A stretch of 58,339 nucleotides of DNA. Origin: an uncultured Eubacteriales bacterium. GTDB taxonomy: Bacteria; Bacillota; Clostridia; TANB77; CAG-508. The notes under the pieces were generated by a model, which saw only the letters and a list, made by a program, of their open reading frames with translations, was not told where the DNA came from and made no database searches. Below are positions 2,529 through 57,218 of the stretch, piece by piece. The stretch covers positions 1-58,339 of the forward strand of contig CASEIX010000024.1 in assembly GCA_949288095.1 (NCBI GenBank), in the 5' to 3' direction. Every line of letters begins with the position of its first letter. The stretch's first letter is position 1. The position numbers and the translations under genes were made by a program.

Positions 2529-2539
2529 GGAGGAGAGAA

Positions 2540-3382: not shown

Positions 3383-3502
3383 ATGTAATGATCTTGAAAA
3401 TGGGATAATGAATATACAAAATCTATAGAAAAAGACGAAGAATGGTATAGATAGCATAAGAAAAAGAATTTGTAAAATAATAATAAAAAATGGTGATATA
3501 TT

Positions 3503-5420: not shown

Positions 5421-7394
5421 ATGGGACAAAAGAAAAGTAAAAGCTTGTTAATAACAGTTATTGTTTTATTAATTATTATTCTACTTTTAGTAGGTGTTAT
5501 AGCATATTTATATTTTTTCACAGATATGTTTAAAAGTAATAAACAGTTATTCTTCAAATATACTTCACAGATTGTACAAAGTGAAAATGGATTTATAGAT
5601 AATCAGTTAATGCAATATTTCCAAAAAAAGAATAGTACAAGTTATGAAAATAATGGAGAAATAACATTTGATGTATCTATTCCCAATATGGAAGATGACT
5701 TAGAATTGGCGAATAATCTTAATATTACTTTCTCAGGAAAAGAAGATCCGAATAACTCAAAATCAGAAAAAGAAATTAGTTTGAACTATTCAGATAGTGT
5801 CAATTTTCCATTAACATATAGAAAAACCAATAATATAACAGGAATTCAAACACAATATATTGGAAGCAGTTTTGTAGCTGTTAGAAATGATGAAGAAATT
5901 TCAGGATTAGAAGATATCAATAATTTATTAAAATTACAAAATATAGAGTTTTCTAATGAAGAAATACAAAGTTTGAAAACAAGCTATTTTGATAATATAT
6001 TAAATACATTAGATGATAGTAAATTCTCTACACTAACAGAAGGAAATTTAACAGGATATAGATTAACATTAACAAGCGAAGAATTTAAAAATACATTGGT
6101 TCAAATCTTAAATGCTTTAAAAACAGATACCAATACAACACATAAATTAAATGAAATATTACAAGGTATAGGAATTGATACACAATTAAATGAAGATTCT
6201 ATAGATGATGTTATAGAAAGTATTAATGATTGGAAATTAAATGATAATGTTGAAATGACTGTATATGCTACAGGAGGAAATCTTACTAGAGTAGATGTAG
6301 AAAGTACAGGAACTACATTAGAAATGAATAAAGAAGGAAATGGACAAGATATCACATACACAATAACATTAAATTCTACAGAACAAGATATAAATGCTGT
6401 ATTTACAGCAAAATATGCTGGTTTAGCTTCTGATAGTGTAACGGAAACATATGAGCTAACATTAGAAGGAAAGTATGAAGAAACTAATGTGGTAGAAAAA
6501 TCAGACAATACACAATATACATTAGATATTTCAAGTGAGAGAGAAGCAATTGAGTCATTAATAACAACTGTTCAGGCAAATAAAATTGCAGTAGGAGAAG
6601 ATAGTACACAAATCAGTGATACAGATGTAGAAGAAGAATTATCATCAGGAGAAAATGAAATCTATGCAGATATGCGTTTAGAAAGAGAAACTGATACAAC
6701 ATTTCATATTACATTTGTTAGTACGGGAGATAGATTTGTCATAGATAATACAGGAGAAATTGTTGAAGAACCAGAAGAAACAACTACAAACGAAAATTCA
6801 AACAATACTTCAAATAGTAGTTCAAACAGTACTTCCGAAACAACCATCAGCCAAAATAAATATAGTGTAACAAATAATGCACAATTTAAAGATGGAGTGG
6901 AAATAGAAGACTTAACAGAAGAAAATGCTGTTATTCTAAATGATAAAAGTAATGAATATGTTAGTAATTTAATGAATGCGATACAAGAAAGAATGGTAGA
7001 AGTTAATCAAGTACAAATGGAAGAATTAGGTGTATCTGAAGATGAGAATCCAATTCAATATCTAATACCAGCATTTTTAGGGGCAAGTCAAACAAATGCG
7101 CAAATTGATGAACAAGCTGTAAATGCATTTAATGCAAAATTTGAATTATATCAAAGTACAAACACAAAGGGCGCAACAGTCAAAGGATTATTAACAACCA
7201 TTCAAAATAATAATGAAACAGAAGGAAATGATAAAATAGAAGAAATCAATATGGATGGGGAAGAATATGAAGTAAATGAGCAAAATATTACCTTATTAAA
7301 AAGTAGTATTAATGTAGATGATGCATACAGAGTAGAATTTGAAAAAGATATTAATACAGGACTCATTTATAGAGCAGTTATTAATAAACGTTAG
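5421..7394 (+). CDS. membrane-anchored hypothetical protein (657 aa)
   Basis: N-terminal TM helix (LLITVIVLLIIILLLVGVIAYLYFF) and a long polar extracytoplasmic region. The last two codons and the TAG stop lie inside the repeat element starting at 7389. Confidence 0.7.
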   Translation: MGQKKSKSLLITVIVLLIIILLLVGVIAYLYFFTDMFKSNKQLFFKYTSQIVQSENGFIDNQLMQYFQKKNSTSYENNGEITFDVSIPNMEDDLELANNLNITFSGKEDPNNSKSEKEISLNYSDSVNFPLTYRKTNNITGIQTQYIGSSFVAVRNDEEISGLEDINNLLKLQNIEFSNEEIQSLKTSYFDNILNTLDDSKFSTLTEGNLTGYRLTLTSEEFKNTLVQILNALKTDTNTTHKLNEILQGIGIDTQLNEDSIDDVIESINDWKLNDNVEMTVYATGGNLTRVDVESTGTTLEMNKEGNGQDITYTITLNSTEQDINAVFTAKYAGLASDSVTETYELTLEGKYEETNVVEKSDNTQYTLDISSEREAIESLITTVQANKIAVGEDSTQISDTDVEEELSSGENEIYADMRLERETDTTFHITFVSTGDRFVIDNTGEIVEEPEETTTNENSNNTSNSSSNSTSETTISQNKYSVTNNAQFKDGVEIEDLTEENAVILNDKSNEYVSNLMNAIQERMVEVNQVQMEELGVSEDENPIQYLIPAFLGASQTNAQIDEQAVNAFNAKFELYQSTNTKGATVKGLLTTIQNNNETEGNDKIEEINMDGEEYEVNEQNITLLKSSINVDDAYRVEFEKDINTGLIYRAVINKR

Positions 7395-7733
7395 GGATGT
7401 GCCAAAGAGGACGTGCCAAAATGGCACCAAAAGGGAGAGACCTTAGCATTATTCACCAAAGGGACCTGTGGTTATATAAAGTCACTCACAATTTTGTATA
7501 AGCTAAATTTTCATAGAATTCTAAAATAAAAAAATGTATTCATGCACTCAGACCCTCTCGTAAACGAGAGTACCGTGCAATTCATACATTTTTTTATTTA
7601 AGAATTTCTACATTCAAATTTAGATACGCAAAATCGATTCGTTTTTTTATATAACCACAGGTCCCTTTGGTGAATAATGCTAAGGTCTCTCCCTTTTGGT
7701 ACCATTTTGGAACGATTTGACACGTCCCTAACG
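7389..7733. repeat. 345-bp nested fold-back element, copy A (outer REP-like ends, 38-nt perfect middle arms, 165-nt imperfect hairpin core)
   Basis: The left end CGTTAGGGATGTGCC... is mirrored by ...CACGTCCCTAACG at the right. Arms 7443..7480 and 7646..7683 are perfectly complementary. The core is centred on CTCTCG-TAAA-CGAGAG. A second copy is at 55113..55460. Confidence 0.9.
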
Positions 7734-7823
7734 TTTCAGTCATAAATTCAATATATTAGAATATATATATTATTGAGGTAGAAGTAAAACAAATTCTAAA
7801 ATTATTGAAAAAAGGAGTGAAAA

Positions 7824-11254: not shown

Positions 11255-11911
11255 ATGATAGAGTTTTTAAGTAGTTGGGCAAAAAGTTTAGGATTGGCCA
11301 TTATTGTCATATCCATTTTAGAAATGTTATTACCCAATAATAAAACAAAAAAATATGTCAGAATGGTATTTGGTATATATATTATTTTTAATATCATATC
11401 ACCATTTGTTAAAAATAAAGATATATTAGATGTTAGTTCTTATGATTTAAATGAATATATCGGTAATTATACAACCAATCAAACAAATGAAGAACAAAGC
11501 ACTGTGAATAGTCAAATAGAAGAAATCTATATAGAAGAATTAGAAAAAGATATCACTAAAAAAATAGAGAATTTAGGGTATCAAGTCACGACTTGTAATG
11601 TGTATGCAACATTATCAAATGAAAATGAAGAAAATTATATAGAAGAAATTGTTTTAACAGTTGAAAAAAATGAAAATCAAGAAAATAATCAACAAGGAAA
11701 TGAAACAGGACAAACAGAAACAATTGAAGATAAGTTAGTAAATGAAATTCAAAAGATAAAACCAGTAAACACTACAGTCGGAAAAATTAATAAAACAAAT
11801 GAGGAACAAGATGAGAGTAAACAAAATATAAATAATAGTGATATTCAAAAGATAAAAAAGTTCTTAAAGGAAGAATATGGAGTTGAGGAAACATGTTTAA
11901 AGATAAATTAA
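11255..11911 (+). CDS. spoIIIAF: stage III sporulation protein AF
   Basis: N-terminus WAKSLGLAIIVISILEMLLPNNKTKKYVRMVFGIYII matches the SpoIIIAF pattern. Confidence 0.7.
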   Translation: MIEFLSSWAKSLGLAIIVISILEMLLPNNKTKKYVRMVFGIYIIFNIISPFVKNKDILDVSSYDLNEYIGNYTTNQTNEEQSTVNSQIEEIYIEELEKDITKKIENLGYQVTTCNVYATLSNENEENYIEEIVLTVEKNENQENNQQGNETGQTETIEDKLVNEIQKIKPVNTTVGKINKTNEEQDESKQNINNSDIQKIKKFLKEEYGVEETCLKIN

Positions 11912-12516
11912 AAGGGTTGATCAATCCAGAAGATAGAAATAAAAACAACAAAAAGAAAATAGAAAATTTAGTATTTTTTGTTGTCATACTAATTGTCACA
12001 ATTGTCATCATAAATATCATATGGAATGGAGATAAAAATAGTAGTAATGAAAAGGAATTACAAAATAATACTTCAAAACAATTAGCCAATAGCAATACAT
12101 CTTCATTAGAAGCATCAAGTAATACCAGTAACCAGTTGGAAATAAAATTAGAAGAAATCTTAGCAAAAATCCAAGGAGTAGGAGAAGTAAATGTGTTCAT
12201 AAATTACTCAGAATCAAGTGAAATTGTACCAATGTATAATGAAAGTACGCAAACCAGCAATACAGAAGAAACAGACACATCAGGAGGAACAAGAACCATA
12301 GAAGAAACCGATTCACAAAAAGAAATCATATATGAAGAAAGTGATGGAGAAAAAACCGTCATTACACAGAAAGTAGTAGAACCACAAATAGAAGGAGCCA
12401 TTATTACAGCAAAAGGAGCAGGAAATGCAGAAGTAAAAACAAGCATCATCCAAGCAGTAGAAGCAGTAACAGGACTGCCAACACATAAAATACAAGTCTT
12501 TGAAATGGAACATTAG
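11893..12516 (+). CDS. spoIIIAG: stage III sporulation protein AG
   Basis: N-terminal TM helix and a C-terminal ring-building-like block VEPQIEGAIITAKGAGNAEVKTSIIQAVEAVTGLPTHKIQVF. It overlaps spoIIIAF by 19 nt. The last codons and TAG lie in the repeat at 12506. Confidence 0.75.
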   Translation: MFKDKLKGLINPEDRNKNNKKKIENLVFFVVILIVTIVIINIIWNGDKNSSNEKELQNNTSKQLANSNTSSLEASSNTSNQLEIKLEEILAKIQGVGEVNVFINYSESSEIVPMYNESTQTSNTEETDTSGGTRTIEETDSQKEIIYEESDGEKTVITQKVVEPQIEGAIITAKGAGNAEVKTSIIQAVEAVTGLPTHKIQVFEMEH

Positions 12517-12594
12517 GGACGTGCCAAATCGTTCCATTTTGAAACGATTTAACCTGTCCCCAATGTTTCAAAATGAAACAAAAGGGACAGACCT
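12506..12594 (+). repeat. REP-like palindromic unit, long form
   Basis: ATGGAACATTAGGGACGTGCCAAATCGTTCCATTTTGAAACGATTTAACCTGTCCCCAATGTTTCAAAATGAAACAAAAGGGACAGACCT. Same family as 27903, 29082, 32308 and 34987. Confidence 0.9.
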
Positions 12595-12626
12595 GAATGA
12601 AAAAACATTGAAAGGAAGGTAATTCT

Positions 12627-14130: not shown

Positions 14131-16473
14131 ATGAAAGAAAAAATGAAAGCAAATCAAATAACAAGAGAAAAGAAACAAAGGATTAAAAAGATAGAAACAG
14201 AAAAAGGAATTACCTTACTAGCTTTAGTGATTACCATTATAGTATTACTAATTTTAGCAGGAATTACAATAGGAGCAATAACAGGAGATAGTGGGATTTT
14301 ACAGAATGCCATAGAAGCAAAAGAGAAAACAGAAATTGCAAATGAAAGAGAAATTGTAGAAGAAGCGACTGTCCGAGCTATGGGAAATAATAAAAGAGGA
14401 AATCTAGTAAGAGATGAATTACAGAAAGAACTAGATAAACTAACAGGAGAAGGAAAAACAATTGTAACAACAGATACAGAAGAACAAGGATATTTTGTAA
14501 AGTTTGTAGACAGTCGAAGAATCTATAAGGTTAGTATAGATGGAGAAGTAGAGTATTTAGGAAAAGAAGACGAGTTAATCACACAAGCAGATATTATAGC
14601 AGATCCAGAAAGTAATACAACACCAGAATTTCTACAAGAAGTAGGACTAACTGTAAAAACACCAATCGAAATAGAAGGAGCAGAGTATTCATTAGTATAT
14701 GCATGGAACCAAGATAAAGAAAATGCACCAGAAGATGAAAAATTCTTAGAAGCAAACTTAATAGGACAAGGAAGAATCAGAACGACAACGGTATATAGTA
14801 GTGATACAGCAGGTGGAGATTATTACTTGTGGGTAAGAATTGTGGTGGGAGAGATAGAAAGAGAAGAATGCTTTGGACCATATGCGATAAAGGATCATAC
14901 AACTTTAGTAGCAACAAGTAGTGAAATAGCATCTACATCGGGATTTTTAGGAAGTGCAAATCAAGAAAAAGAATTAGTAAAAGAAGTTCAAAGAGGATTA
15001 ATAAAAAGTGTAAATATAGTAACATCATTAGAAGGACATAGTTTAAATGATGCAAATACATGGGATGTATCAGATGGAAATAAAGGAATGTATTTAGCAT
15101 GGGTAGAAAAAGATGAAAACGGATATTATGGTATTACAATAGGAGGAGAAGGTAGTGTTGTAGCAAGAAATTATTCAACATGTTTGTTCAAAAATATAGG
15201 ATATGGAGTAGAAAATCAAGAGGTAACTATTACAGGATTGGAAAATCTAGATACAGGTTTAGTAATTGATATGGTAGAAATGTTTCGCAATTGTCAAGCG
15301 AGTAATCTGAATTTAAATGGGTTTGATACTAGTAATGTAAGAAGTATGGAAAATATGTTTTATGATTGTAATGTAAGTGGATTAGATTTAAATGATTTTG
15401 ATACCAGCAATGTAACAAACATGAGTGGTATGTTTTATGATTGTTCTGCTTTAACAAATTTAAATATTGATAATTTTGATACTAGTAATGTAACGGATAT
15501 GAATGGAATGTTTCATGGTTGTGGAAATTTAACGAATTTAAATGTTAGTAGCTTTAATACTAAAAATGTAATTAATATGAATCAAATGTTTGATTATTGC
15601 AAGAGTTTAACACAATTAGATTTAAATAACTTTGATACCAGTAATGTAACGAATATGACATATATGTTCTATAATTGCACAAAATTAGTGGATTTAAACA
15701 TAGATAATTTTAATACAAGTAAAGTAACAAGTATGCAAAGAATGTTTTGGTGGTGTAGTAGTTTAAAGAGTTTAGATGTAAGTAGTTTTAACACGAGTAA
15801 TGTGACAAGTATGGAGAGAATGTTTGCTAATTGTACAACTCTAACACAATTAGATGTAAGCAATCTTCGCACAGATAATGTAAAAAGCATGAATGCAATG
15901 TTTGGTGGTTCTAGTGGATTAACAAGTCTAGATTTAACTAATTTTAAAACAGAAAATGTGACAGATATGGGAAGTATGTTTGATGGTTGCAGTAATCTAA
16001 TAAGTTTGAATGTTAGTAGTTTTAATACAAATAATGTAAAAGTAATGAGTGGAATGTTTAATAATTGTACTAAGTTGAAGAATTTGGATTTAAGTAATTT
16101 TAATACAAGTAATATAACTAATATGGAGTTAATGTTTGGAGGTTGTCATAGTTTAACAGATTTAAATATCAGTAGTTTTGATACAAGCAATGTTACTAAA
16201 ATGTTTAGAATGTTTATAAATTGTAGTAGTTTAACAGAATTAGATTTAAGCAATTTTTATACAGGTAATGTTACTGATATGGAATCCATGTTTCACGGTT
16301 GTGGTAAATTAACAAGGCTAGATATAAGAAATTTTGATATAAGTAAGGTTACAAATTCATCAATGACAATACATCTAGTACCAACAACAATAGAAATCAT
16401 AACAAACCAAAATACAAAAGATTGGATTTTAGAAAAATTTCCAGATTATACAAATATAACAGTGGTTGAATAA
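14131..16473 (+). CDS. surface protein: prepilin-like N-terminal module fused to 14 BspA/DUF285-type leucine-rich repeats
   Basis: KG|ITLLALVITIIVLLILAGITIGAITGD resembles a class III signal peptide. It is followed by 14 repeats of about 25 aa of the form F(D/N)TSNVTxMxxMFxxCxxLxxL(D/N). Confidence 0.8.
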   Translation: MKEKMKANQITREKKQRIKKIETEKGITLLALVITIIVLLILAGITIGAITGDSGILQNAIEAKEKTEIANEREIVEEATVRAMGNNKRGNLVRDELQKELDKLTGEGKTIVTTDTEEQGYFVKFVDSRRIYKVSIDGEVEYLGKEDELITQADIIADPESNTTPEFLQEVGLTVKTPIEIEGAEYSLVYAWNQDKENAPEDEKFLEANLIGQGRIRTTTVYSSDTAGGDYYLWVRIVVGEIEREECFGPYAIKDHTTLVATSSEIASTSGFLGSANQEKELVKEVQRGLIKSVNIVTSLEGHSLNDANTWDVSDGNKGMYLAWVEKDENGYYGITIGGEGSVVARNYSTCLFKNIGYGVENQEVTITGLENLDTGLVIDMVEMFRNCQASNLNLNGFDTSNVRSMENMFYDCNVSGLDLNDFDTSNVTNMSGMFYDCSALTNLNIDNFDTSNVTDMNGMFHGCGNLTNLNVSSFNTKNVINMNQMFDYCKSLTQLDLNNFDTSNVTNMTYMFYNCTKLVDLNIDNFNTSKVTSMQRMFWWCSSLKSLDVSSFNTSNVTSMERMFANCTTLTQLDVSNLRTDNVKSMNAMFGGSSGLTSLDLTNFKTENVTDMGSMFDGCSNLISLNVSSFNTNNVKVMSGMFNNCTKLKNLDLSNFNTSNITNMELMFGGCHSLTDLNISSFDTSNVTKMFRMFINCSSLTELDLSNFYTGNVTDMESMFHGCGKLTRLDIRNFDISKVTNSSMTIHLVPTTIEIITNQNTKDWILEKFPDYTNITVVE

Positions 16474-22052: not shown

Positions 22053-23642
22053 ATGCAAAAGATAAGGAAAGAACAAGGAATTACACTATTAGCATTGGTT
22101 ATCACAATTATTATATTATTAATTTTAGCAGGAATTACAATAAGTGCCATTACAGGAGATAATGGAATCATAGGAAATGCAGGTCAAGCAAAAGAAGAAA
22201 CAGAAATTGCGAATGAAAAAGAAATCGTAGAAAAAGCAACCGTGCAAGCAGTGGGAAATAATAAATATGGGAATATAGAGGAAAGTGAATTACAAGAACA
22301 ATTGGATAAAGAAACCAAAGAAGGAGAAACAGAAGTATCAGATGTCGGAGATGAATTTGAAGTTGTATTTCATGAAAGTAATAGATATTATACAGTAGAT
22401 AAAGATGGAAATGTAGAAGGTGCTTATGAAATTATAGAAGATACACATCCAGGAGATATAACAGTAGGAAAAGATGGAGAAACATTGGATGGAAGTGAAG
22501 AAAAACCATATGAGATTTGGTGTATAGAGGACTTATGTGCATTTTCGAATGAAGTAAATAAAGGAACAAGTTTTTTGAATAAATATATAAAATTAATGAG
22601 AGATTTAAATTTTAATTCGGATTTTTCTTACGTAAATGGAAACATATCTGTAGATGGCAATATTCAAAGTTGTCAATCAATCGAAGAATTAAAAAAGCTA
22701 TTAACAGAAAATGAAGGGTTTTATCCAATTGGAGATAGAAGTACAGTAACTTCTGTTTTTACAGGAATACTAGATGGGAATCATAAAATCATTAAAAATA
22801 TTTATATTAATAGACCAGATATGACAGTAGGATTATTTGGAACGACCCTTATACAGTATTCAGATATGCTTATTAAAGATTTAAGTATTTCTGGAGATAT
22901 AACTGGTAATACTGCAGGAGGAATATATGGTATATTGTCAAATACGAATCCTAATGTATGTGTTAAAATAGAAAATTGTACAAGTGATGTAACAATAGAA
23001 GGAAAGGTAACAGGAGGAATAATAGGAGGCGTTGGTTCAGGGGCTAATTCTAGTTATATAATGATATCTAATTGTATAAATACAGGAAAAATTAATGGAG
23101 CTACTAGGGCAGGAGGAATACTAGGACAGCATTATAATAATGATGCTAAGATAGTAAATTGTTATAATTTAGGAAATATATCAGGAGAAGGAGATGTTGG
23201 AGGAATTATAGGATATGAGTATAGGGGATCAAATGTAATAAATTCATATAATTTAGGAAATGTGACATCTGATTCAAATGCAGGTGGAATAATAGGAAAT
23301 TTAGAATGGGCTGAAAGAATTATAGAAAATTGCTATAACATTGGAAAAGTATCGGGAAAAGTTGCAGGAGGTATTCTAGGAGGATTAAATACAAGCAATG
23401 AATTATTGATTACAAAAAACTGCTATTATTTGAACACAAATATTTCAAAAGGAATTGGAGGATGGGATTCTAGTAAAGAAACATTAGAAGATATACAAGG
23501 TCTTTCAGACACAGAAATGAAATCAACCGAAATATTAGAGAAACTCAATAACTATGTAACAGAAAATATAACAATGAAAGATGTTGTGTTAAAAAAATGG
23601 ATAGTAGGAGAGGATGGATATCCTGGATTTGATAATAACTAA
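22053..23642 (+). CDS. surface protein: prepilin-like N-terminal module fused to GLUG-motif repeats
   Basis: The N-terminus QG|ITLLALVITIIILLILAGITISAITGDNGI...EIANEKEIVEKATVQAVGNNK is paralogous to 14131..16473. The C-terminal half has six (A/T/V)GGI(I/L/Y)G repeats. Confidence 0.75.
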   Translation: MQKIRKEQGITLLALVITIIILLILAGITISAITGDNGIIGNAGQAKEETEIANEKEIVEKATVQAVGNNKYGNIEESELQEQLDKETKEGETEVSDVGDEFEVVFHESNRYYTVDKDGNVEGAYEIIEDTHPGDITVGKDGETLDGSEEKPYEIWCIEDLCAFSNEVNKGTSFLNKYIKLMRDLNFNSDFSYVNGNISVDGNIQSCQSIEELKKLLTENEGFYPIGDRSTVTSVFTGILDGNHKIIKNIYINRPDMTVGLFGTTLIQYSDMLIKDLSISGDITGNTAGGIYGILSNTNPNVCVKIENCTSDVTIEGKVTGGIIGGVGSGANSSYIMISNCINTGKINGATRAGGILGQHYNNDAKIVNCYNLGNISGEGDVGGIIGYEYRGSNVINSYNLGNVTSDSNAGGIIGNLEWAERIIENCYNIGKVSGKVAGGILGGLNTSNELLITKNCYYLNTNISKGIGGWDSSKETLEDIQGLSDTEMKSTEILEKLNNYVTENITMKDVVLKKWIVGEDGYPGFDNN

Positions 23643-24293: not shown

Positions 24294-24309
24294 AATGAAC
24301 ATAATATAG

Positions 24310-24566
24310 AAAAACGATAGTCAGGACACGATAAATGGCATAATATCTTAAAGAGAGCCAAAGGTAGCTGAGAATTTGGTAAGTAAACTCTATTTATTAT
24401 CCCCTAACTGTTACTAAACTGAAATAAAAGTAAGTATAGTCGTAAATCTGCGTTAAAGATAAATGAGAGAACTAATTAAAAGAGAATTAATTAGTTAAAA
24501 TAGGTGGTACCGCGGAAAGTAAAGCTATTTCGTCCTAAGTTAGGATGTTAAATAGCTTTTTTTGTT
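24310..24566 (+). promoter_or_regulatory. T-box leader (tRNA-sensing riboswitch) with terminator
   Basis: AGAGAG and GCTGAGA stem I elements, and the conserved T-box AAAATAGGTGGTACCGCG at about 24497..24514. The terminator AAAGCTATTT...AAATAGCTTTTTTT spans 24521..24566. The 5' boundary is approximate. Confidence 0.8.
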
Positions 24567-24770: not shown

Positions 24771-27700
24771 ATGTACAAAAAAGTAGAATTGCAAAATGGT
24801 TTTGTCGGAATGGAAAATGATGTTGCCAAAATGTGGAAGGACAAAGACATCATAAAGAAAAGCCTTAACGGAAATCAAGGGAAAAGATATTTTACCTTTT
24901 ATGATGGACCTCCAACAGCAAATGGAAAACCACATGTAGGACATATTGAAACAAGAGTTATGAAAGACTTAATTCCAAGATACAAAGTCATGAAAGGATA
25001 CAGAGTTATCAGAAAAGCTGGATGGGATACACATGGATTACCAGTAGAACTAGAAATAGAGAAAAAACTAGGTATTTCAGGAAAACAACAAATAGAAGAA
25101 TATGGTGTAGAAAAATTTGTAAAACAATGTAAAGAAAGCGTTTTTGAATATGTTCATTTATGGGAAGAAATGACAAACAAAGTTGGATTCTGGGTAGATA
25201 TGGATGATCCATATGTAACTTATCATAATGAATATATTGAATCTGTATGGTGGGCATTAAAACAAATGTGGGAAAAAGGATTACTTTATGAAGGACATAA
25301 AGTAATGCCATATTGTCCAAGATGTGGAACAGCTTTATCATCACACGAAGTAGCACAAGGATACAAAGATGTAAAAGATTTAACATGTATTGCGAAATTT
25401 AAAGTAGTTGGAAAAGATAACACATATATCTTAGCATGGACAACAACTCCATGGACATTACCATCAAACTTAGCACTTTGTGTTAATAAATCATATGAAT
25501 ATGCTGAAGTAAAAGCCAATATTGGAACAGATGATGAACCAATATATGAAAACTATATTTTAGCAAAAGATTTATTAGAAACCGTATTAAAAGAAACACC
25601 ATATGATGTTGTAAAAACATTTAAAGGTGAAGAATTATTAGGTACAAAATATGAAAGATTAATACCATTTGGAGAAGTAGAAGGAAAAGCATTTGAAGTT
25701 ATTCATGGGGACTATGTTACATTAACAGATGGTACAGGTATTGTTCATATTGCACCTGCTTATGGTGAAGATGATAGTTATGTTGCAAAACAAAATGGTA
25801 TTACCTTTATTAATCTAGTAGACAAAGAAGGAAAATTTGTAAAAGAAGTAGAACCATGGGCTGGAAGATTTGTAAGAGATTGTAATGAGGATATTTGTAA
25901 ATGGTTAAAACAAGAAAATAAACTATTCAGCAAAGAAAAACATATGCACTCATATCCACATTGCTGGAGATGTGATACACCACTTTTATATTATCCAAAA
26001 GAAAGTTGGTTTGTTGCTATGAGTAAACTAAGAGATGAATTAGTTGAAAATAATAGCAAAGTAAACTGGTATCCAGAAACGATTAAAACAGGAAGATTTG
26101 GAAAATTCCTAGAAAATGTTATTGACTGGGGAATTTCAAGAGATAGATATTGGGGAACACCACTACCAATCTGGACTTGTGAAGATGAAAATTGTGGACA
26201 TCAAGAATGTATTGGTTCAATTGCAGAATTAAAAGAAAAAGGTATTGATGTACCAGATGATATAGAATTGCATAAACCATATATTGATAATGTATATTTG
26301 AAATGTCCAAAATGTGGCAAGAAAATGCATAGAGCAAAAGAAGTTATCGACTGTTGGTTTGACTCAGGTTCAATGCCTTTTGCACAATGGCATTATCCAT
26401 TTGAAAATAAAGAAATGTTTGACAACAATTTCCCTGCTGGATTTATTTCAGAGGCAGTTGATCAAACAAGAGGATGGTTCTATACATTAACAGCAATTGG
26501 AACCGCACTATTTAATAGAACACCATTTGAAAACTGTATCGTTTTAGGTCATGTCTTAGATGAAAAAGGACAAAAGATGTCTAAATCAAAAGGAAATGGT
26601 GTAGACCCAATGGAATTATTAAACACAGTTGGTGCAGATGCAACAAGATGGCATTTCTATACATGCAGTGCTCCATGGCTACCTACAAGATTAGGATTAG
26701 ATAATGTAAAAGAAACTCAAAGAGGATTTTTAAGCACATTATGGAATGTATATTCTTTCTATGTGTTATATGCAGAAATAGACCAATTCAATCCATTAAC
26801 ATATAAAGATTTCAAAGTAACAAATATTATGGATAAATGGATTATTTCAAAACTAAATACATTAATCAAAGATGTAGATAATAAATTAGATAGTTATGAT
26901 ATTACAGGAGCCGCATTAGAAATAGAAGAGTTTACAGACAGTTTATCAAACTGGTATGTCAGAAGAAACAGAGAAAGATTCTGGAGTCAAGAATTAACAG
27001 ATGACAAGATTGGAGCATATGTAACACTATATAAAGTATTAGTAGACTTATGCAAAGTATCAGCACCATTTGTACCATTCATGACAGAAGAAATTTATCA
27101 AAACCTAGTGGTTAGCTTAGACAAAACAGCACCTGAAAGTATCCATTTATGTTCATGGCCAGAAGTAGATGAAAATGTCATTGACAAAGACTTAGAAAAA
27201 GAAATGGACTTAGCATATAGAATTGTCAAACTAGGAAGAAGTGCAAGAAACTCTGTAAACATCAAAAACAGACAACCATTATCAGAAATGTTAATCTCAA
27301 TAGATACACTTCCAGAATATTATGCAGACATTGTAAAAGAAGAATTAAATGTCAAAGAAGTTGTATTAGGAGCAGAAATGTCTGAATATGTAAACTTCGA
27401 AATCAAACCAAATTTACCAGTCTTAGGAAAAGAATATGGTAAATTAATTCCTAGAATTAGAGAAGAAATTGCAAAGAAAAATCAAATGGACTTAGCAAAT
27501 ACAGTAAAAAATGGTGGAGTAGAATATATTGAAATCGATGACACACAAATTGGACTAAACGCAGAAAACTTACTAGTCACAATGCAAGGAAAAGAAGGAT
27601 TTGCATTTAGTGGAGAAGGAGAAATTGGTGTTGTATTAGACACAACTATCACACCAGAACTAGCAGAAGAAGGAGTCCTAAGAGAAGTCTTATCAAAAGT

Positions 27701-27914
27701 ACAAAACATGAGAAAAGACAGTGGATTTGAAGTATTAGACAGAATCAATCTATATGTAGCAGGAAATGAAAAAGTAGAAGCTGTTATCAAAAAATACGAA
27801 GAAACCATCAAACATGACACATTAGCAGACAACATCTTCTATAACAAAGAAGGAAGAGATTATACTGATACAAATATTAATGGAGAGAATTTAAAGATTG
27901 ATGTGGAACGTTAG
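24771..27914 (+). CDS. ileS: isoleucine--tRNA ligase (long, about 1,050-aa form)
   Basis: HIGH motif [17 protein letters not shown] motif KMSKSKGN, and the editing and Zn-finger regions. The last codons GTG GAA CGT TAG lie in the repeat at 27903. Confidence 0.97.
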
Positions 27915-27958
27915 GGACGTGTCAAATCGTTTCAAAATGGAACGAAAGGGACAGACCT
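27903..27958 (+). repeat. REP-like palindromic unit, short form
   Basis: GTGGAACGTTAGGGACGTGTCAAATCGTTTCAAAATGGAACGAAAGGGACAGACCT. Confidence 0.9.
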
Positions 27959-28063
27959 AAAAAACGATTTGGTTATATTGGAAATGACACAAGAATGAAT
28001 AAAAATGAAAAGGATATATCTAAAAATACAAACATTTGAGTAGGTATGTCCTTTTTATTTTAG

Positions 28064-28092
28064 TTGACAAATGGAAAAAAATGTAATATTAT
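28064..28092 (+). promoter_or_regulatory. sigma-A-type promoter upstream of the RAYT gene
   Basis: TTGACA, a 17-nt spacer, then TATTAT. Confidence 0.5.
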
Positions 28093-28163: not shown

Positions 28164-28919
28164 ATGTCTAGAATTGCGAGAAATCAAATGGAAACCACTT
28201 TTTTTCATAATATGACACAGGGAATAAACAAAGAATATATTTTTGAAGAAAATAGATGTAAAAAGAAATATATAGAACTATTACAAAAAGAAGTAAATGA
28301 ATTTAATATAAATTTGATTGCTTTTACTATCATGAATAACCATGCACATATATTATTGCATACAGAAAATATAAGTAACATGAGTAAATTTATGAAAACA
28401 ATTAATGAAAAATTTGCAATGTATTACAATTATATAAATAAAAGAGTAGGAATTGTTTTTAGAAATCGATATAAAAGCCAACCAATATTAAGTGAAAAGC
28501 AACTATTAAATTGTATCAGATATATTTTTAATAATCCTGTAAGAGCAAAAATTGTTTTAAATCCAGAAAAATATATTTATTCTAATTTTAAAGATTTTCA
28601 AGTTAGTCAAATATCAGAAATTTCGTTAGATAGAATTTATAAAAATATTAATAATTCGATTGATTTTCCAAATGTAAAAAATCAAAAAATAATAGCAGAA
28701 GCAGAATTTTTAGATACGTTTGAGGATACAGAAATATTTATTAAAGAATTAATAAAAAATTATGAAAAAGGAAAAGACTTAATGATAGGTAAAAATACAG
28801 AGGAAATGAAAAAGATTGTACAATATGTAAAAGAAAATACAAATATATCGCATAAGTTTTTGGCAGATATATTACATGTATCTAAAACAACAATTAGTCG
28901 ATATATAAAAGGTGAATGA
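28164..28919 (+). CDS. REP-associated tyrosine transposase (RAYT) / IS200-like Y1 HUH transposase with C-terminal HTH-like tail
   Basis: HUH motif NNHAHILLH, GIVFRNRYKSQPI block, catalytic Tyr block CIRYIFNNPVRAKIV and C-terminal LADILHVSKTTISRYIKGE. Confidence 0.8.
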   Translation: MSRIARNQMETTFFHNMTQGINKEYIFEENRCKKKYIELLQKEVNEFNINLIAFTIMNNHAHILLHTENISNMSKFMKTINEKFAMYYNYINKRVGIVFRNRYKSQPILSEKQLLNCIRYIFNNPVRAKIVLNPEKYIYSNFKDFQVSQISEISLDRIYKNINNSIDFPNVKNQKIIAEAEFLDTFEDTEIFIKELIKNYEKGKDLMIGKNTEEMKKIVQYVKENTNISHKFLADILHVSKTTISRYIKGE

Positions 28920-29081: not shown

Positions 29082-29136
29082 AGGTCTGTCCCTTTCGTTT
29101 CATTTTGAAACGATTTGGCACGTCCCTAACGTTCCA
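29082..29136 (-). repeat. REP-like palindromic unit, short form (inverted)
   Basis: AGGTCTGTCCCTTTCGTTTCATTTTGAAACGATTTGGCACGTCCCTAACGTTCCA. It ends directly against the SD AAGGAGG of the next gene. Confidence 0.9.
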
Positions 29137-32307: not shown

Positions 32308-32391
32308 AGGTCTGTCCCTTTCGTTTCATTTTGGAACATTGGGGACGGGTTAAATCGTTTCAAAACGGAACGATTTGGCACGTCCCCAATG
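32308..32391 (-). repeat. REP-like palindromic unit, long form, variant terminus CATTGGGGACG (no TAG)
   Basis: AGGTCTGTCCCTTTCGTTTCATTTTGGAACATTGGGGACGGGTTAAATCGTTTCAAAACGGAACGATTTGGCACGTCCCCAATG. Confidence 0.9.
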
Positions 32392-32485
32392 TAACACTGA
32401 AATAAAAATACAATACGTACGAAAATAATTCGTTTATACACAGTTGAAAATTTGATAAGATAAACAAAAAAATAAAGGTGGTAAT

Positions 32486-32812: not shown

Positions 32813-32994
32813 AAGATATTTAGAATGAGAGCAGAAACTCATTCTTTTTTTCTTATATTTTTTGTTTTATAAAGATTTGCCTATATTATATAGACTATTT
32901 CTATATAATTGTTTTTATAAACTGGTTTTGACACAAAGATAGTTTTATTATATACTGATATCGCAATAATATAAAAATAGAGGAGTTGTCATAT

Positions 32995-34998
32995 ATGAAA
33001 GAAAATGAGACATATGAACAATGTGTAATAAAGGAAAAAAATGAAGGACAATTTAGTAGAGAAAAATACTTAAAGTTATTAAGTAAAGAATTTAAAAATA
33101 CAACAGAAGTGGCAGAAGAAATTATTAATTTAAAGGCAATACTAAATTTACCAAAGGGAACAGAAGTATTTTTAAGTGATATTCATGGAGAATATGCACC
33201 ATTTACCCATATTTTAAATAATGAAGCAGGAATTATAAAAAGTAAAATTGAAGAAACATTCGAAAATCGAATTACAGAAAAAGAACGAAATACATTAGCA
33301 ACTTTGATATATTATCCAAAAGAAAAACTAAAATTCATTAAACAAGAAACAGAAAATCTAGAAGAATGGTATGCAATTACTTTATACAGATTAGTAGAAG
33401 TAGCAAGAAAAGTAAGTTCAAAATATACAAGATCAAAAGTTAGAAAAGCGATTCATAGTGGATTTGAATATATTATAGATGAATTACTACACTCACAAGT
33501 AGATAGTGAAAAAGATAAAGAAAATTATTACAAACAAATTATTAAGACAATTATTGAGCTAGAACAAGCAGATAGCTTTATCATAGCTATATCAGACTTA
33601 ATTAAACAAATGGCGATAGACCATTTACATGTAATAGGAGACATCTTTGATAGAGGAAGATATCCAGATTTAGTATTAGATAGACTAATGAGTTTTCATA
33701 GCTTAGACATTCAGTGGGGAAATCACGATATATTATGGATGGGAGCAGGATGTGGAAATAAAGCTAATATTGCAACTGTTGTTAGAATATGTGCAAGATA
33801 TAATAATATAGGAATATTGGAAGATTCTTATGGAATAAATATGAGGCCATTATCCACATTTGCACAAAAAATATATAAAAATGATGATTGTGCAAACTTT
33901 ATGCCAAAGGTATTTGATTTTAATAAATATGACAATAGTGATAGAAATAGTATAGCCAAAATACAAAAAGCAATAACGATTATTCAATTTAAAATTGAAG
34001 GACAATTAATCAAAAAACACCCAGAATATCATTTAGACAATCGATTATTACTAGACAAAATGAATATAGAAAAAGGAACCGTAACGATAGAGGGAAAAGA
34101 ATATGAATTAAATGACAAGAATTTTCCAACAATTGATAAAAATGATCCATATGCTTTAACTTCTGAAGAAAATGAAATCATGGAAAGACTTGCAGAATCT
34201 TTTGTGCATAGTCCTAGTCTACAAAAACATTTGAAATATTTATACACAAAAGGAGAAATATATACTATATTTAATAATAATCTTTTATTCCATGGTTGTA
34301 TTCCAGTAGATGAAAATGGAAATTTAAAAGAAGTAGAATTTATGGGAAAAAGATTAAAAGGAAAAGCCTATTTTGATGAAATCAATGAAGTGGTAAATAA
34401 AGTATTTGCAACAAGACAGCCAGAATTAGTAGATATCATGTGGTTTTTATGGATTTCACCAGAATCACCATTTTTCGGAAAAGAAAAAATGGCAACATTT
34501 GAAAGCTATTTTGTAAAAGATAAAACAATGAGCAAAGAATCCAAAAGTCCCTATTATCAATATTCTGAAAATGAAGAATTTTGTGTAAAAATATTAAGAG
34601 AATTTGGATTAGAAGGAGAAGATTCTCATATCTTAAATGGACATGTTCCAGTAAAAGCAAAAGATGGAGAAAGTCCAATAAAAGCAAATGGAAAACTATT
34701 AGTGATTGATGGCGGATTTGCAAAAAGCTTTAGAGAAAAAACAGGAAATGCAGGATATATCTTAACATATAACTCAAATGGATTATTATTAAGTCAAAAT
34801 AAACCATTTGAATCTGTAGAAAAAGCAATTGTAGAAGAAACAGATATTATCAGTGAAATCATTGTCAAGAAAACAGATGTTCTTAGAAAAAGAGTAGCAG
34901 ATACAGACATAGGAGCAAAACTAAAAGGAGAAATTGCAGACTTACAAGAATTAATGAAAGCATATAAAAATGGAGAAATAAAAGAAGTGGAACGTTAG
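32995..34998 (+). CDS. fbp: fructose-1,6-bisphosphatase, class 3
   Basis: IINLKAILNLPKGTEVFLSDIHGEY, HVIGDIFDRG, WGNHD and GHVPV metallophosphoesterase motifs, and a length of about 665 aa. I prefer the ATG at 32995 over the track TTG at 32986. The last codons GTG GAA CGT TAG lie in the repeat at 34987. Confidence 0.9.
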   Translation: MKENETYEQCVIKEKNEGQFSREKYLKLLSKEFKNTTEVAEEIINLKAILNLPKGTEVFLSDIHGEYAPFTHILNNEAGIIKSKIEETFENRITEKERNTLATLIYYPKEKLKFIKQETENLEEWYAITLYRLVEVARKVSSKYTRSKVRKAIHSGFEYIIDELLHSQVDSEKDKENYYKQIIKTIIELEQADSFIIAISDLIKQMAIDHLHVIGDIFDRGRYPDLVLDRLMSFHSLDIQWGNHDILWMGAGCGNKANIATVVRICARYNNIGILEDSYGINMRPLSTFAQKIYKNDDCANFMPKVFDFNKYDNSDRNSIAKIQKAITIIQFKIEGQLIKKHPEYHLDNRLLLDKMNIEKGTVTIEGKEYELNDKNFPTIDKNDPYALTSEENEIMERLAESFVHSPSLQKHLKYLYTKGEIYTIFNNNLLFHGCIPVDENGNLKEVEFMGKRLKGKAYFDEINEVVNKVFATRQPELVDIMWFLWISPESPFFGKEKMATFESYFVKDKTMSKESKSPYYQYSENEEFCVKILREFGLEGEDSHILNGHVPVKAKDGESPIKANGKLLVIDGGFAKSFREKTGNAGYILTYNSNGLLLSQNKPFESVEKAIVEETDIISEIIVKKTDVLRKRVADTDIGAKLKGEIADLQELMKAYKNGEIKEVER

Positions 34999-35076
34999 GG
35001 ACGTGCCAAATCGTTCCGTTTTGAAACGATTTAACCCGTCCCCAATGTTCCCAAATGAAACAAAAGGGACAGACCT
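34987..35076 (+). repeat. REP-like palindromic unit, long form
   Basis: GTGGAACGTTAGGGACGTGCCAAATCGTTCCGTTTTGAAACGATTTAACCCGTCCCCAATGTTCCCAAATGAAACAAAAGGGACAGACCT. Confidence 0.9.
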
Positions 35077-35212
35077 ATCATGATAAAAAGGAAAAATAAA
35101 TAAAACGTTTGACAAATTTTGTTTAGCAGTATATAAATAAGATAAAGATTATTTATATACTGCTATATATTTTAAGATAATATAACATTATTTTAAAAGG
35201 AGGTAAGTATTA

Positions 35213-39713: not shown

Positions 39714-39745
39714 ACAGACTACAAAATAGTAGTCTGTTTTGTTTT
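39714..39745 (+). terminator. rho-independent terminator of spoVS
   Basis: ACAGACTAC-AAAATA-GTAGTCTGTTTTGTTTT. Confidence 0.8.
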
Positions 39746-39858
39746 GTCCAATTGGGGACGTTTCTTTTTGGACATTTTATTTATATTTGTTACTTATAAT
39801 TTCTTTTTTAGACAACACATCAAAAAAATGTCCAAAAAGAAACGTCCCCAATTGGACA
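39746..39858. repeat. 113-bp MITE-like element with perfect 30-bp terminal inverted repeats
   Basis: TGTCCAATTGGGGACGTTTCTTTTTGGACA at 39746..39775 is matched by its exact reverse complement at 39829..39858. It shares ATTGGGGACG with the REP family. Confidence 0.85.
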
Positions 39859-54642: not shown

Positions 54643-55113
54643 ATGAGTAGAGTAAAAACATTATTGATGTATGCCTTATGGATTGTACTGTTTATTATAT
54701 TTTCTGAGTTTCTAATTAATGTTGGTTTGAATTCAACTTATAAGCCAATAGAAAGAAGAGATAATGTGTCACAAGTCAATGTATATCAAGCAGAGGCAAC
54801 ACTTGTCAATGGAAGAATAAGGGGATTAATAACTAATTCAGAAACAAATAATATAAGTAATAAATATTTAGAATTTGATTTTTATTCTGAAAGAGATGTA
54901 TTTTTAGGGAAAAAAATCATTGATATTAATGAATTAGAAGCTAATGAAATACAAAACTTTGAGATTTTATTTAAATTGGAAGATGTGGACTATTATACAG
55001 TTAGTGTATTAGATGAAAGACCTGAAGGTGAGGAAATAGAAATTCTTCCTGAAGGTTGGACAACTGCAGAAATAATAGTAGCAACTGCCTTTACATTGCT
55101 AATTTTCTGGTAG
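54643..55113 (+). CDS. membrane protein, unknown function (TM helix at each end)
   Basis: N-terminal TM helix LLMYALWIVLFIIFSEFLI and C-terminal TM helix IIVATAFTLLIFW. The stop TAG abuts the fold-back element. Confidence 0.6.
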   Translation: MSRVKTLLMYALWIVLFIIFSEFLINVGLNSTYKPIERRDNVSQVNVYQAEATLVNGRIRGLITNSETNNISNKYLEFDFYSERDVFLGKKIIDINELEANEIQNFEILFKLEDVDYYTVSVLDERPEGEEIEILPEGWTTAEIIVATAFTLLIFW

Positions 55114-55460
55114 TGGAACGTTAGGGACGTGTCAAATCGTTTCAAAATGGGTCAAAAGGGACAGACCTTAACCTGCCCACCAAGGAAACTTGTGTTTATA
55201 TAAAGTCATTCACAATTTTGTATAAGCTAAATTTTCATAGAATTCTAAAAGAAAAAGATGTATTCATGCACTCAGACCCTCTCGTAACGAGAGTACCGTG
55301 CAATTCGTACATCTTTTTCTTTAAGAATCTCTATATTCAAATTTAGATACGCAAAATTGATTCATTCTTTTATATAAACACAAGTTCCCTTGGTGGGCAG
55401 GTTAAGGTCTGTCCCTTTTGACCCATTTTGAAACGATTTGATACGTCCCTAACGTTCCAC
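55113..55460. repeat. ~348-bp nested fold-back element, copy B
   Basis: Same layered architecture and nearly identical core as 7389..7733, with a different but internally complementary middle layer. It fills the whole gap between two convergent genes. Confidence 0.9.
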
Positions 55461-57218
55461 TCCTGCCCAAAGAGTTTTATTATTTTTATAAATCACCATA
55501 CCAGGTTTTGCACCATTTGGTTTTTTTACATATTTTACTTCACAAAAGTCCACAGGTACGTTAGAAGAATTTCTAGCTTTACTATGGTAAGCTGCAATTT
55601 CTGCACATTTTAATAAAATATCATCTTTAGGAATAGGAGAACCATTTAGGACTAAAATACAATGGCTTCCATGAATATCTTTGGCATGAAACCATAAATC
55701 TGTTTTTTTTGCATATTTTAAAGTTAAATAGTCATTTTCCATATTGTTTCGACCAACTAAAAGCGTATAATCTTCAATTTTATATTTGATTGGATTAAAG
55801 TGTACATATTTATTTTTGGTTAATTTTGATTTTTTTACTTTCGGATTTTTCTTTTCTTTATATTTTTCCGTTTTTTCTTTAAAAACAGAGCTTTCAGAAA
55901 TTTCTTCAAAAACATTACTAATATCTTCTATGGTAGAACAAGCTTCTAATTCATAAATAACACTTTCTATATAATCTAAATCTTTCATTGTCTCTTCTTT
56001 TTGTTCTCCAACAATCAGCAAAGCATTTTTTAATTTATTATATTTTTTAAAAAATAGTTTGGCATTATGACTAGGAGAATAACGTTTATCCAAAGGAATC
56101 GTAATCATTTTATTATTGTCATAATAATTTTCTAAAGATACTGTATCGGTATTTTCATTTTTAATTCTATACAAATTTGCTGTGATAAGTTCACCATATA
56201 ATTTATAAGTATCCATCTGGTCACATTCTTTTAGTTTTTCATTAATGTTATATAGTCTTTTGTTATATTTTTTTAGTGTATCTAAAATCAATTTTGAAAC
56301 ACTATTTCTATATACTTTAAATTCTTCAGATGTTTCTTTATGAAAATAATAATCATCAATGAAAAAGTTAATAGAAAAAGAATCTGAAGATGAATCCTTT
56401 TTGCATAAAATATAATCTTTTACATTTCCCTTATCATCTTTTATAGTATCAAAGCCTAACTGCAAAGAATCTGTTGCATCAATCACATGTTTCATATTTG
56501 CATAAATGGTTTCTAAATTTTTATCGTCTATTTTAGATGAAGTATCTAAATGTAGTGTTTCAACAATATGACTAATAAAACTTTTACTAATTCCATTAAA
56601 AATATTAGAAATGTGTGAAGGTAGATCAGACATGTGCATCTTTTCAAAATCAAAATCAAAATCTAAATTTAATTTTAATTTGAAATCTTGAAAATTAGTA
56701 ACTTCTAAAAAATTCAACTTATTTGTAGAAGGATATACATATTTTACATGTGGGACAATTTCTCTGGTCAATTCATTATCAGAAGAAATATGTCGTAAAC
56801 TATCGATAATCACATTATTTTCATCCACTAAAATGACATTACAATGTCTTCCCATTAATTCTATAATTAATTTTTTGGTAATAATATCATCTATATCATC
56901 AAAACCCTCAAACTCAATGGTAATGACTCTTTCTAAATTGACAGAAATAATATTTTTGATACGTAATCCAATTAAATATTTTCTTAATAACATACAAAAA
57001 TTTAATGCATTTTTAGGATTCAGTTTTGTATGTGTTGTTAAATGTAATCGATAATTTTGTGCATTTGTACAAATGTTTAATGCATAATTAACACCATTTA
57101 AATAAAAGCCTAAAACAATATCATTTTTATTTGGTTCATATACTTTATCAATTCTAGCACCAATTAGTTGTTGTAATTCAGAGGTAATTGCTTTTGTCAC
57201 AATTCCATCAAATGCCAT
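55449..57218 (-). CDS. rqcH: ribosome quality-control factor RqcH (NFACT / FbpA family)
   Basis: N-terminus MAFDGIVTKAITSELQQLIGARIDKVYEP and the NFACT-R block DLWFHAKDIHGSHCIL. The last codons GTG GAA CGT TAG lie in the repeat. Confidence 0.9.
   Translation of the reverse strand: MAFDGIVTKAITSELQQLIGARIDKVYEPNKNDIVLGFYLNGVNYALNICTNAQNYRLHLTTHTKLNPKNALNFCMLLRKYLIGLRIKNIISVNLERVITIEFEGFDDIDDIITKKLIIELMGRHCNVILVDENNVIIDSLRHISSDNELTREIVPHVKYVYPSTNKLNFLEVTNFQDFKLKLNLDFDFDFEKMHMSDLPSHISNIFNGISKSFISHIVETLHLDTSSKIDDKNLETIYANMKHVIDATDSLQLGFDTIKDDKGNVKDYILCKKDSSSDSFSINFFIDDYYFHKETSEEFKVYRNSVSKLILDTLKKYNKRLYNINEKLKECDQMDTYKLYGELITANLYRIKNENTDTVSLENYYDNNKMITIPLDKRYSPSHNAKLFFKKYNKLKNALLIVGEQKEETMKDLDYIESVIYELEACSTIEDISNVFEEISESSVFKEKTEKYKEKKNPKVKKSKLTKNKYVHFNPIKYKIEDYTLLVGRNNMENDYLTLKYAKKTDLWFHAKDIHGSHCILVLNGSPIPKDDILLKCAEIAAYHSKARNSSNVPVDFCEVKYVKKPNGAKPGMVIYKNNKTLWAGVER

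Follow-up and report, generated by a model that had tools for sequence, protein, structure and literature searches.

Why do the reading frames of several unrelated genes run into the same short repeat and end at a stop codon that lies inside it? The question is raised by a 58,339-nt stretch of DNA (28% G+C; hereafter the window, meaning the whole stretch that was analysed) from an uncultured Eubacteriales bacterium, contig CASEIX010000024.1, in which a dispersed repeat supplies the stop codons of ileS and of four other genes and in which the copy at ileS adjoins a transposase gene. The best overall explanation, and in our judgement a probable one, is that the repeat consists of units of the repetitive extragenic palindrome (REP) or terminal inverted repeat (TIR) type that belong to this transposase, a protein resembling the REP-associated tyrosine transposases (RAYTs), and that lie at gene 3' ends with built-in stops. 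Stop donation itself is already known from GTAG-tagged REPs elsewhere; the present case differs in host, in tag and in transposase class.

Five open reading frames (ORFs) of the window, ending at 7394, 12516, 27914 and 34998 on the forward strand and at 55449 on the reverse strand, stop at a TAG that occupies positions 6–8 of repeat matches starting at 7387+, 12509+, 27907+, 34991+ and 55445−, the shared context being the TAG of (T)[G/T]GAAC[G/A]TTAGGGAC. The original prediction that five ORFs stop at the TAG of the repeat is thus borne out by comparing the mechanical ORF list with the motif positions, and the codons that it quoted for their last residues (DVER, EVER, GVER, MEH and KR, each followed by the stop) are all correct. 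The gene ileS (24771..27914, forward strand; TIGR00392), which is preceded by a T-box leader at 24308–24540 (Rfam RF00230, 94.6 bits), ends in DVER, with its stop TAG at 27912–27914 in the focal copy. The class 3 fructose-bisphosphatase gene fbp (32986..34998, forward; Pfam FBPase_2) ends in GEIKE-VER, and spoIIIAG (11893..12516, forward; TIGR02830, below its cut-off) in QVFE-MEH. A 657-aa DUF6583 protein (5421..7394, forward) ends in INKR and takes its TAG from the left head of a long form of the repeat at 7384–7738, while rqcH (55449..57218, reverse; NFACT family, with NFACT domains) ends in KTL-WAGVER at the TAG of the right head of a second long form, at 55112–55461. These are long named genes, and their profile matches extend to within 1–9 residues of the TAG. 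The original prediction was also right about a sixth gene, encoding a 156-aa protein (54643..55113, forward) that ends in IFW: it has its own TAG, and with the G of that stop begins the left head, GTGGAAC, of that second long form. As a side observation, 53 selected ORFs of the window use TAA 31 times, TAG 13 times and TGA nine times; of the 13 TAG stops, repeat heads contain five and adjoin a sixth.

The repeat is dense, with nine heads in 58 kb. Its 12-mer AACGTTAGGGAC has 15 matches in the window with up to two mismatches, against 1.3 expected, and none of 100 shuffles reaches 15. The focal unit (27903..27961, forward) consists of a head, GTGGAACGTTAGGGACGTGTC, a small hairpin, TCGTTTCAAAATGGAACGA, and a tail, AAAGGGACAGACCT. 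For comparison, GTDB species genomes were scanned once with AACRTTRGGGACGTGYC, which gave at least 113 loci (L-numbers below denote such loci or contigs of related genomes); of the matches listed, to which all counts from relatives given below refer, at least 80 loci are low-GC contigs that come from many metagenome-assembled genomes (MAGs) of uncultured Clostridia from animal guts. The consensus of 112 non-redundant heads is T[G/T][G/A]AAC[G/A]TT[A/G]GGGAC, and conservation begins 7–8 nt 5' of the TAG (the outermost bases, T[G/T]GAAC and its variants, are hereafter called the tip), beyond which there is none. The heads are tagged by TT[A/G]G, with 60 A to 52 G.

The repeat exists as single units, hairpin doublets and long hairpins of about 350 bp. 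A single unit folds weakly (z = −1.9), and among single and doublet forms strong hairpins are confined to the doublets, which have 29-bp arms; doublets and long forms fold strongly, with z from −3.3 to −29.7. The doublet at the end of fbp (34987..35079, forward) is composed of a head unit, an inverted unit and a tail, with the fbp stop at 34996–34998, and that 3' of spoIIIAG (12505..12597, forward) holds the spoIIIAG stop at 12514–12516. A third doublet (32308..32398, reverse), entered by no ORF, has a TTGGGG rather than a TTAGGG head. Of the long forms, that at 7384..7738 has two inverted heads around a shared core, its left head being degenerate with its TAG at 7392–7394; that at 55112..55461 lies between convergent genes as a single near-perfect hairpin (−224 kcal/mol, z = −29.7), both heads touching or overlapping the stops of the flanking genes. 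The two have a common core of about 220 bp at 89–93% identity. In the close relatives L124 (3990–4420) and L126 (1335–1760) the interior between the heads is mutually inverted, as would be expected from recombination between inverted ends. The copies are old, fixed within the species and common to several species; the doublet after spoIIIAG is present in all eight contigs of the species. Clustered regularly interspaced short palindromic repeats (CRISPR) and Tn3-type inverted repeats were considered as sources of the motif and rejected on anatomy.

What connects the repeat with mobility is the gene that follows its focal copy. This gene (28164..28919, forward), which the original prediction did not mention, encodes a 251-aa RAYT-like Y1 transposase of the HUH type with the HUH motif HAH, the tyrosine motif RYIFNNPVRA and a C-terminal helix-turn-helix (HTH). 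Its best NCBIfam match is REP_Tyr_transpos (REP-associated tyrosine transposase; E = 4.7e-17), with IS200 also matched, and Pfam places Y1_Tnp at residues 15–123 (E = 7e-9) and HTH_11 at residues 216–249 (E = 1.4e-6); the protein family comprises 125 clusters (50% identity) at E ≤ 1e-30. A promoter-like site, TTGACA-17-TATTAT, lies 5' of the gene at 28064..28092 on the same strand, with 11 of 12 matches and identical sequence in relatives. The gene is bracketed by inverted copies of the repeat, 27904–27958 on the left and 29082–29136 (reverse strand) on the right, the latter 55 nt long and 96% complementary to the former, and it is likewise bracketed in L044, L076 and L120. Gene order (ileS, transposase, ATP-binding cassette (ABC) transporter) is constant in the window and these three loci, as is the contact of the right-flank unit with the ribosome-binding site of the transporter gene, whose ATG in the window is at 29151. 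Among the matches listed, tblastn located the transposase only 3' of ileS, in the window, L044 and L076, with no RAYT match in 77 other repeat loci and no tnpB; L120, examined separately, also carries the gene. Since it was found only at this syntenic locus, the transposase gene looks single-copy and vertically inherited, like proteobacterial RAYTs (PMC5581495). RAYT-like proteins with an HTH and flanking TIRs have been named TIRYTs, and the corresponding structures defined as TIRtrons (Di Nocera et al. 2013, PMC3733652); in a later classification these proteins make up subclass 2.1 (Quentin et al. 2018, PMC6006769). Bracketing by inverted copies of a dispersed repeat gives the locus the anatomy of a REPtron or TIRtron. 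To judge by these features the repeat is the REP/TIR-type family of a RAYT-like, probably TIRYT-class, Y1 HUH transposase, and the likeness to IS200/IS605 and to the GTAG of REPs drawn in the original prediction is apt, with such a gene adjoining the focal copy. In L120, both flanks of the transposase cassette (2290–2340 and 3640–3700) are without the T[GT]GAACG tip.

How the heads lie relative to genes was scored in 127 outer heads of 80 low-GC loci by placing the stop of the closest co-oriented ORF on a scale whose zero is the T of the internal TAG (the offset). The internal TAG itself is used (offset 0) at 37 heads. Another 16 heads have offset −8 and 11 have offset −7, and these 27 ends stop at a TGA in the tip, which the tip variants TGAAAC and TTGAAC create and which stops ORFs of the other two frames. 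Two heads have offset −9 and 13 fall between −11 and −15, about 30 are scattered elsewhere and 18 have no ORF. About half of the heads have a co-oriented stop within 15 nt. The heads sit at, or a few bases inside, gene 3' ends, and the internal TAG terminates some 19 unrelated gene families across species, orthologous sites being clustered. With a TAG 8 nt into the head and a TGA at the tip of many variants, a frame that enters stops within 0–3 codons in two of the three frames. A few frames miss the stop, and their proteins are lengthened: RqcH of L071 gains the repeat-encoded tail VRDVSNRSKIEQKGQT, identical in L049, and proteins of L018 and L089, with TTGG heads, gain ERWGRAKSF.

An ORF of 120 codons or more runs into 41 of the non-redundant heads, and the three frames are represented there 22, 13 and 6 times; the 22 in the TAG frame exceed one third (p = 0.006), as the original prediction expected in a check set beforehand and applied here to at least 80 related loci. 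The ratio of TAG to TGG is 20:2 where that codon is in frame and 40:49 elsewhere (p = 8e-5), and heads that offer the tip in the matching frame are enriched for TGA as well (p = 0.012). In the two ORF-abutting doublets of the window, the A of the TAG is the sole unpaired base in the long hairpin, while the TTGGGG doublet that abuts no ORF pairs perfectly. The frame excess, the TAG and TGA biases and the cost to the hairpin point to selection for an immediate stop.

Which of the residues before the stop belong to the gene, and which to the repeat, differs from gene to gene. The conserved part of Fbp ends in AYKNGEIKE, after which repeat-bearing relatives continue with [VMI]E[RHQ] and stop; in repeat-free orthologues the residues between GEIKE and the stop are N, TE, MI, II, TI, NWK, NKGK, TKSK or KINIKN, none ending in VER. 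In L114, 12 nt are missing and Fbp ends GEIK-TAG at the same repeat TAG. A possible degenerate head remnant 3' of fbp in L115, GTAACAATAGTTAC, agrees at 11 of 16 positions and was too weak to use. Native RqcH tails follow the pattern KTL[YHN]V.PK.., from which WAGVER of the window differs. To judge from these alignments, the Fbp tail and the RqcH tail of the window are non-native, in agreement with the original prediction. At other rqcH loci, the junction GTGAAC of L071 encodes a native V-N, and in L124 and L126 a native-like tail, HVTPKTDC, continues directly into TAGGAACGTGCC.

For IleS the same comparison goes the other way. Dozens of repeat-free orthologues end in NLKIDVEV[VI]K, and L119 offers an empty site, with neither repeat nor transposase gene, in which ileS reads AAT GTT GAA GTG ATA AAA TAA and is followed by its own terminator; L119 and the window are 97% identical in the C-terminal region of IleS and 94% in the neighbouring ABC-transporter protein. 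Because these repeat-free sequences and the empty allele carry V-E, the V-E (GTG GAA) of DVER in the window is native, with the junction directly after T[T/G]GAA; by the same alignment only CGT-TAG, that is R and the stop, is new, and three native residues, V-[VI]-K, were lost. The displaced native tail, GTGATAAAATAA, was sought 3' of both repeats and was not found there. In L120, ileS has a 14-nt deletion and IleS ends in nine repeat-encoded residues, LGTCQIVSK. In a response regulator (GYK-M), in GatB (EEL) and in MutS2 (VVEM), the Pfam profile runs on as far as the tip codons, which suggests that these are native as well. Between ileS and the transporter gene L119 has, instead of the transposase cassette, a 448-aa protein with an N-terminal HTH (1785–3548).

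The original prediction had assigned all of the 6–9 nt before the TAG, and with them the present C-terminal residues, to the element. This holds for the TAG and the preceding CGT or CAT (R or H) and for the non-native tails of Fbp and of RqcH in the window, but the native V-E of ileS, the native V-N of rqcH in L071 and the profile ends make it wrong in several cases. The search for empty-site alleles, likewise proposed there, succeeded for ileS and returned a native T[T/G]GAA at the junction, that is, a V-E that is not derived from the element.

These junctions suggest how the units may have come to lie where they do. We propose that copies would have spread by action of the transposase on single-stranded DNA, integrating next to T[G/T]GAA-like pentanucleotides to which a hexamer within the unit, the partner, corresponds, and that purifying selection would then have retained only copies, G-to-A variants and small junction indels that yield an immediate stop. 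Such a target would explain the native tip in ileS. The tip does covary with a hexamer about 19 nt downstream: tips form 4.48 base pairs with their own partners against 4.00 ± 0.07 with shuffled partners (maximum 4.24), and the combinations include TTGAAC with GTTCAA, TGGAAC with GTTCCA or GTTTCA, TGAGAC with GTCTCA and TGTCCA with TGGACA. A bolder version, which we offer tentatively and hold to be doubtful in its full form, is that the units choose their sites by pairing an internal GTTC[A/C]A with T[G/T]GAAC-like host sequence, in the manner of the IS608 guide and target, that the "stop-ready" edge (TGA tip, TAG 8 nt in) evolved in the element and allows it to colonise essential genes, among them ileS, gatB and mutS2, at their last codons, and that host selection keeps the TAG allele despite the hairpin mismatch. 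Capture of the GTGGAA tip by a master copy from the 3' end of ileS was considered and rejected, the right flank having TGGAAC without contact with ileS.

Several observations weigh against the reading of the repeat as REP/TIR-type units of this transposase. The NCBIfam RAYT score of the 251-aa protein is 62.2 bits, below the cut-off of 80, and a PDB sequence search with it gave no match at E ≤ 1. The unit is no simple palindrome with a GTAG tag, and differs in this from the GTAG-tagged palindromes of 20–40 bp by which REPs are recognized. A search for presence/absence polymorphism within the species by way of identical HTH and SpoIIIAH proteins, in the few contigs available, found the doublet fixed in all, and neither a transposition event nor such polymorphism was seen; the related genomes, moreover, are all MAGs. 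A T[G/T][G/A]AA stands 5' of the heads that is host sequence in ileS and is also common to both ends of single elements: some elements share 8–11 nt including the tip at their two ends, AAATCTGAAAC in L032, L045 and L095 and AGTGGAAC in the window, which speaks for a tip that an element can bring with it. Nor does a pentanucleotide target explain the placement by itself. With 24 gene-end and 236 intergenic sites of the tip motif in the window, it predicts about 9% of tolerated copies at gene ends, against about 50% observed. No single model explains why almost every element touches a gene end.

One way to account for the placement without targeting is that copies landed 3' of native stops and that the spacer and some native codons were lost in later small deletions, the endpoints of which were often the tip and a native pentanucleotide resembling it, the built-in TAG or TGA rescuing termination each time; closeness to genes would reflect age and deletion bias. 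Orthologous junctions differ between species by 4–14-nt indels, as in fbp of L114 (12 nt) and ileS of L120 (14 nt, with nine repeat-encoded codons) and further between L006 and L008, between L100 and L039, and between the window and both L071 and L046; erosion or re-insertion at junctions therefore occurs as well. Possible intermediates exist in 13 heads, among the matches listed, that retain a native stop 3–7 nt 5' of the tip. As the main cause, however, erosion requires that some 40 independent sites each underwent a second event, and it leaves the covariation of tip and partner unexplained, and the symmetric loss of the tip at both cassette heads of L120 resembles re-insertion or conversion more than random deletion. 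We regard it as the strongest competitor, possible but with the odds against it.

The explanation given in the original prediction, that the whole of (G)TGGAACGTTAG is element DNA which inserted into the last codons, that only insertions in the TAG frame survived and that V-E-R and the stop are element-encoded, fares less well than erosion, and we consider it unlikely. In its favour, conservation of the tip extends to heads with no abutting gene, for instance by the ribosome-binding sites of divergent genes, and both ends of single elements share the tip and extra bases; repeat-free Fbp relatives are without V-E after GEIKE, and the tail WAGVER is foreign to RqcH. Against it stand the native V-E of IleS, present in dozens of orthologues and in the empty allele of L119, the native V-N of RqcH in L071, the Pfam profiles that enter the tip codons of the response regulator, GatB and MutS2, and the occurrence of all three frames among gene-abutting heads.

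Somewhat less likely again is that the repeat is a host cis-regulatory RNA element of 3' ends (one that stabilises mRNA, acts as terminator or attenuator, or forms a hairpin at which ribosomes stall on reaching the stop) rather than mobile DNA, held at gene ends by selection, the Y1 gene being incidental. Copies that are fixed and syntenic across species fit this idea, as do the strong folds of doublets and long forms. So does a study by Liang, Rudd and Deutscher, who are said to have found in 2015 that in E. coli a REP placed 15 nt or less from a stop down-regulates translation; the structured repeat described here, at no more than 15 nt from the stop, is comparable, although that work concerns the function and not the origin of the placement and the comparison is one of sequence. 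Against a purely regulatory signal, the bracketing of the transposase gene by inverted copies is just that of REPtrons and TIRtrons, and subfamilies with different stems coexist and vary between genomes. Rfam covariance models at the gathering threshold gave no family for the repeat in the window, where only the T-box and one tRNA pass, and a scan around the focal copy found no terminator and no terminator-like T-run 3' of units, so that the units do not qualify as intrinsic terminators. The repeat could be regulatory and mobile at once. That the junctions are a product of chance or of ORF calling, with frames running past real stops into an AT-rich repeat, has nothing in its favour beyond the purely mechanical ORF listing and is already refuted, its likelihood being close to nil, by the recurrence of the same junctions in orthologues of several species, the sharply peaked offsets and the frame statistics; the profile matches of five long named genes also speak against it.

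Returning to REP/TIR-type units of a RAYT-like transposase, the closest known parallel is that of the GTAG REPs and REPINs with their RAYTs in Proteobacteria such as E. coli and Pseudomonas. Both are abundant short extragenic repeats that form singles, inverted doublets and clusters; in both, inverted copies bracket a Y1 HUH transposase gene, which here looks single-copy as it is there, and a conserved tag ending in TAG at the 5' foot lies near ORF 3' ends and supplies TAG stops. Termini of GTAG REPs often do so, these REPs lying less than 20 bp from ORF 3' ends and, where they separate convergent genes, mostly with under 20 bp to either ORF (Di Nocera et al. 2013, PMC3733652). The differences are a host among low-GC, spore-forming Clostridia, a tag TT[A/G]G after T[G/T]GAAC instead of GTAG, a unit that is not a simple G+C-rich palindrome and a transposase with an HTH at its C-terminus and an NCBIfam RAYT score short of the cut-off.

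The system also resembles TIRYTs with their TIRtrons and the transposases of subclass 2.1: like them, it has flanking terminal inverted repeats and a RAYT-like Y1 protein, some 250 aa long, whose C-terminus carries an HTH. TnpA_REP-like transposases of subclass 2.1 carry an HTH, and no REP-like sequences were reported beside their genes (Quentin et al. 2018, PMC6006769), whereas such repeats do adjoin the gene here; group 1 RAYTs occur in Clostridia (PMC5581495). According to Di Nocera et al., the TIR motif is GGGGWSAS (GGGG[AT][CG]A[CG]) and TIRs are moderately abundant in some genomes, as dimers (PMC3733652). Relative to that motif, GGGGACGT of the inner units and GGGACAG of the tail in the window are one base off, a near match only. 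Stop-codon use has been reported for GTAG REPs and not for TIR families (PMC3733652); unlike the latter, the repeat of the window is dense and has it.

IS200/IS605 elements such as IS608 and ISDra2 share the Y1 HUH transposase, and the T[G/T]GAA 5' of every head, native in ileS and covarying with the internal hexamer, would correspond to their target. Those elements, as Barabas in 2008 and Guynet in 2009 are said to have found, insert 3' of a fixed target of 4–5 nt (TTAC, TTGAT) that pairs with an internal guide, and the target then resembles left-end sequence. Unlike them, the system described here has one transposase gene in the window rather than multiple copies, has no tnpB, has inverted repeats rather than asymmetric left and right ends as its termini, and has non-autonomous units that far outnumber the gene. 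As small non-autonomous repeats that enter reading frames, or as long hairpins with inverted ends, the units also recall the Rickettsia palindromic elements and the miniature inverted-repeat transposable elements (MITEs; Correia, RUP, ERIC). The Rickettsia elements, however, insert within genes and add internal peptide segments, and classical MITEs derive from DDE transposons with target-site duplications; here, inspection by eye of the flanks of seven window elements showed no consistent direct repeat.

The comparison extends REP-type repeats that press against gene ends and donate stops to low-GC gut Clostridia, and links the HTH-bearing (TIRYT) transposase class, hitherto poorly tied to dispersed repeats, to one such repeat. 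For annotation it means that the C-termini of IleS, Fbp, RqcH, GatB, MutS2 and other proteins in these MAGs are partly repeat-encoded and vary between close species, and for assembly that contigs tend to break at the repeats. The empty site at ileS and the covariation of tip and partner lead to a testable hypothesis for target choice by RAYT-like transposases, a problem unsolved for REPs.

A second subfamily of the repeat is present in the window at 39745–39858 as an inverted pair with head TGTCCAATTGGGGACG, GTCC/GGAC stems and 34 nt between its arms, and it predominates in some related MAGs (L004, L044, L089 and L091). The window also holds the sporulation genes spoIIIAA and spoIIIAH besides spoIIIAG, which mark its source as a spore-forming member of the Clostridia. 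At 14131–16473 it encodes a protein of 780 aa in which some twelve repeats of 78 nt (26 aa), resembling DUF285 or leucine-rich repeats, stand in tandem, the N-terminal 284 nt of which are 75% identical to the start of the ORF at 22053–23642, and at 43028–49012 it contains a very long ORF of 1994 aa.

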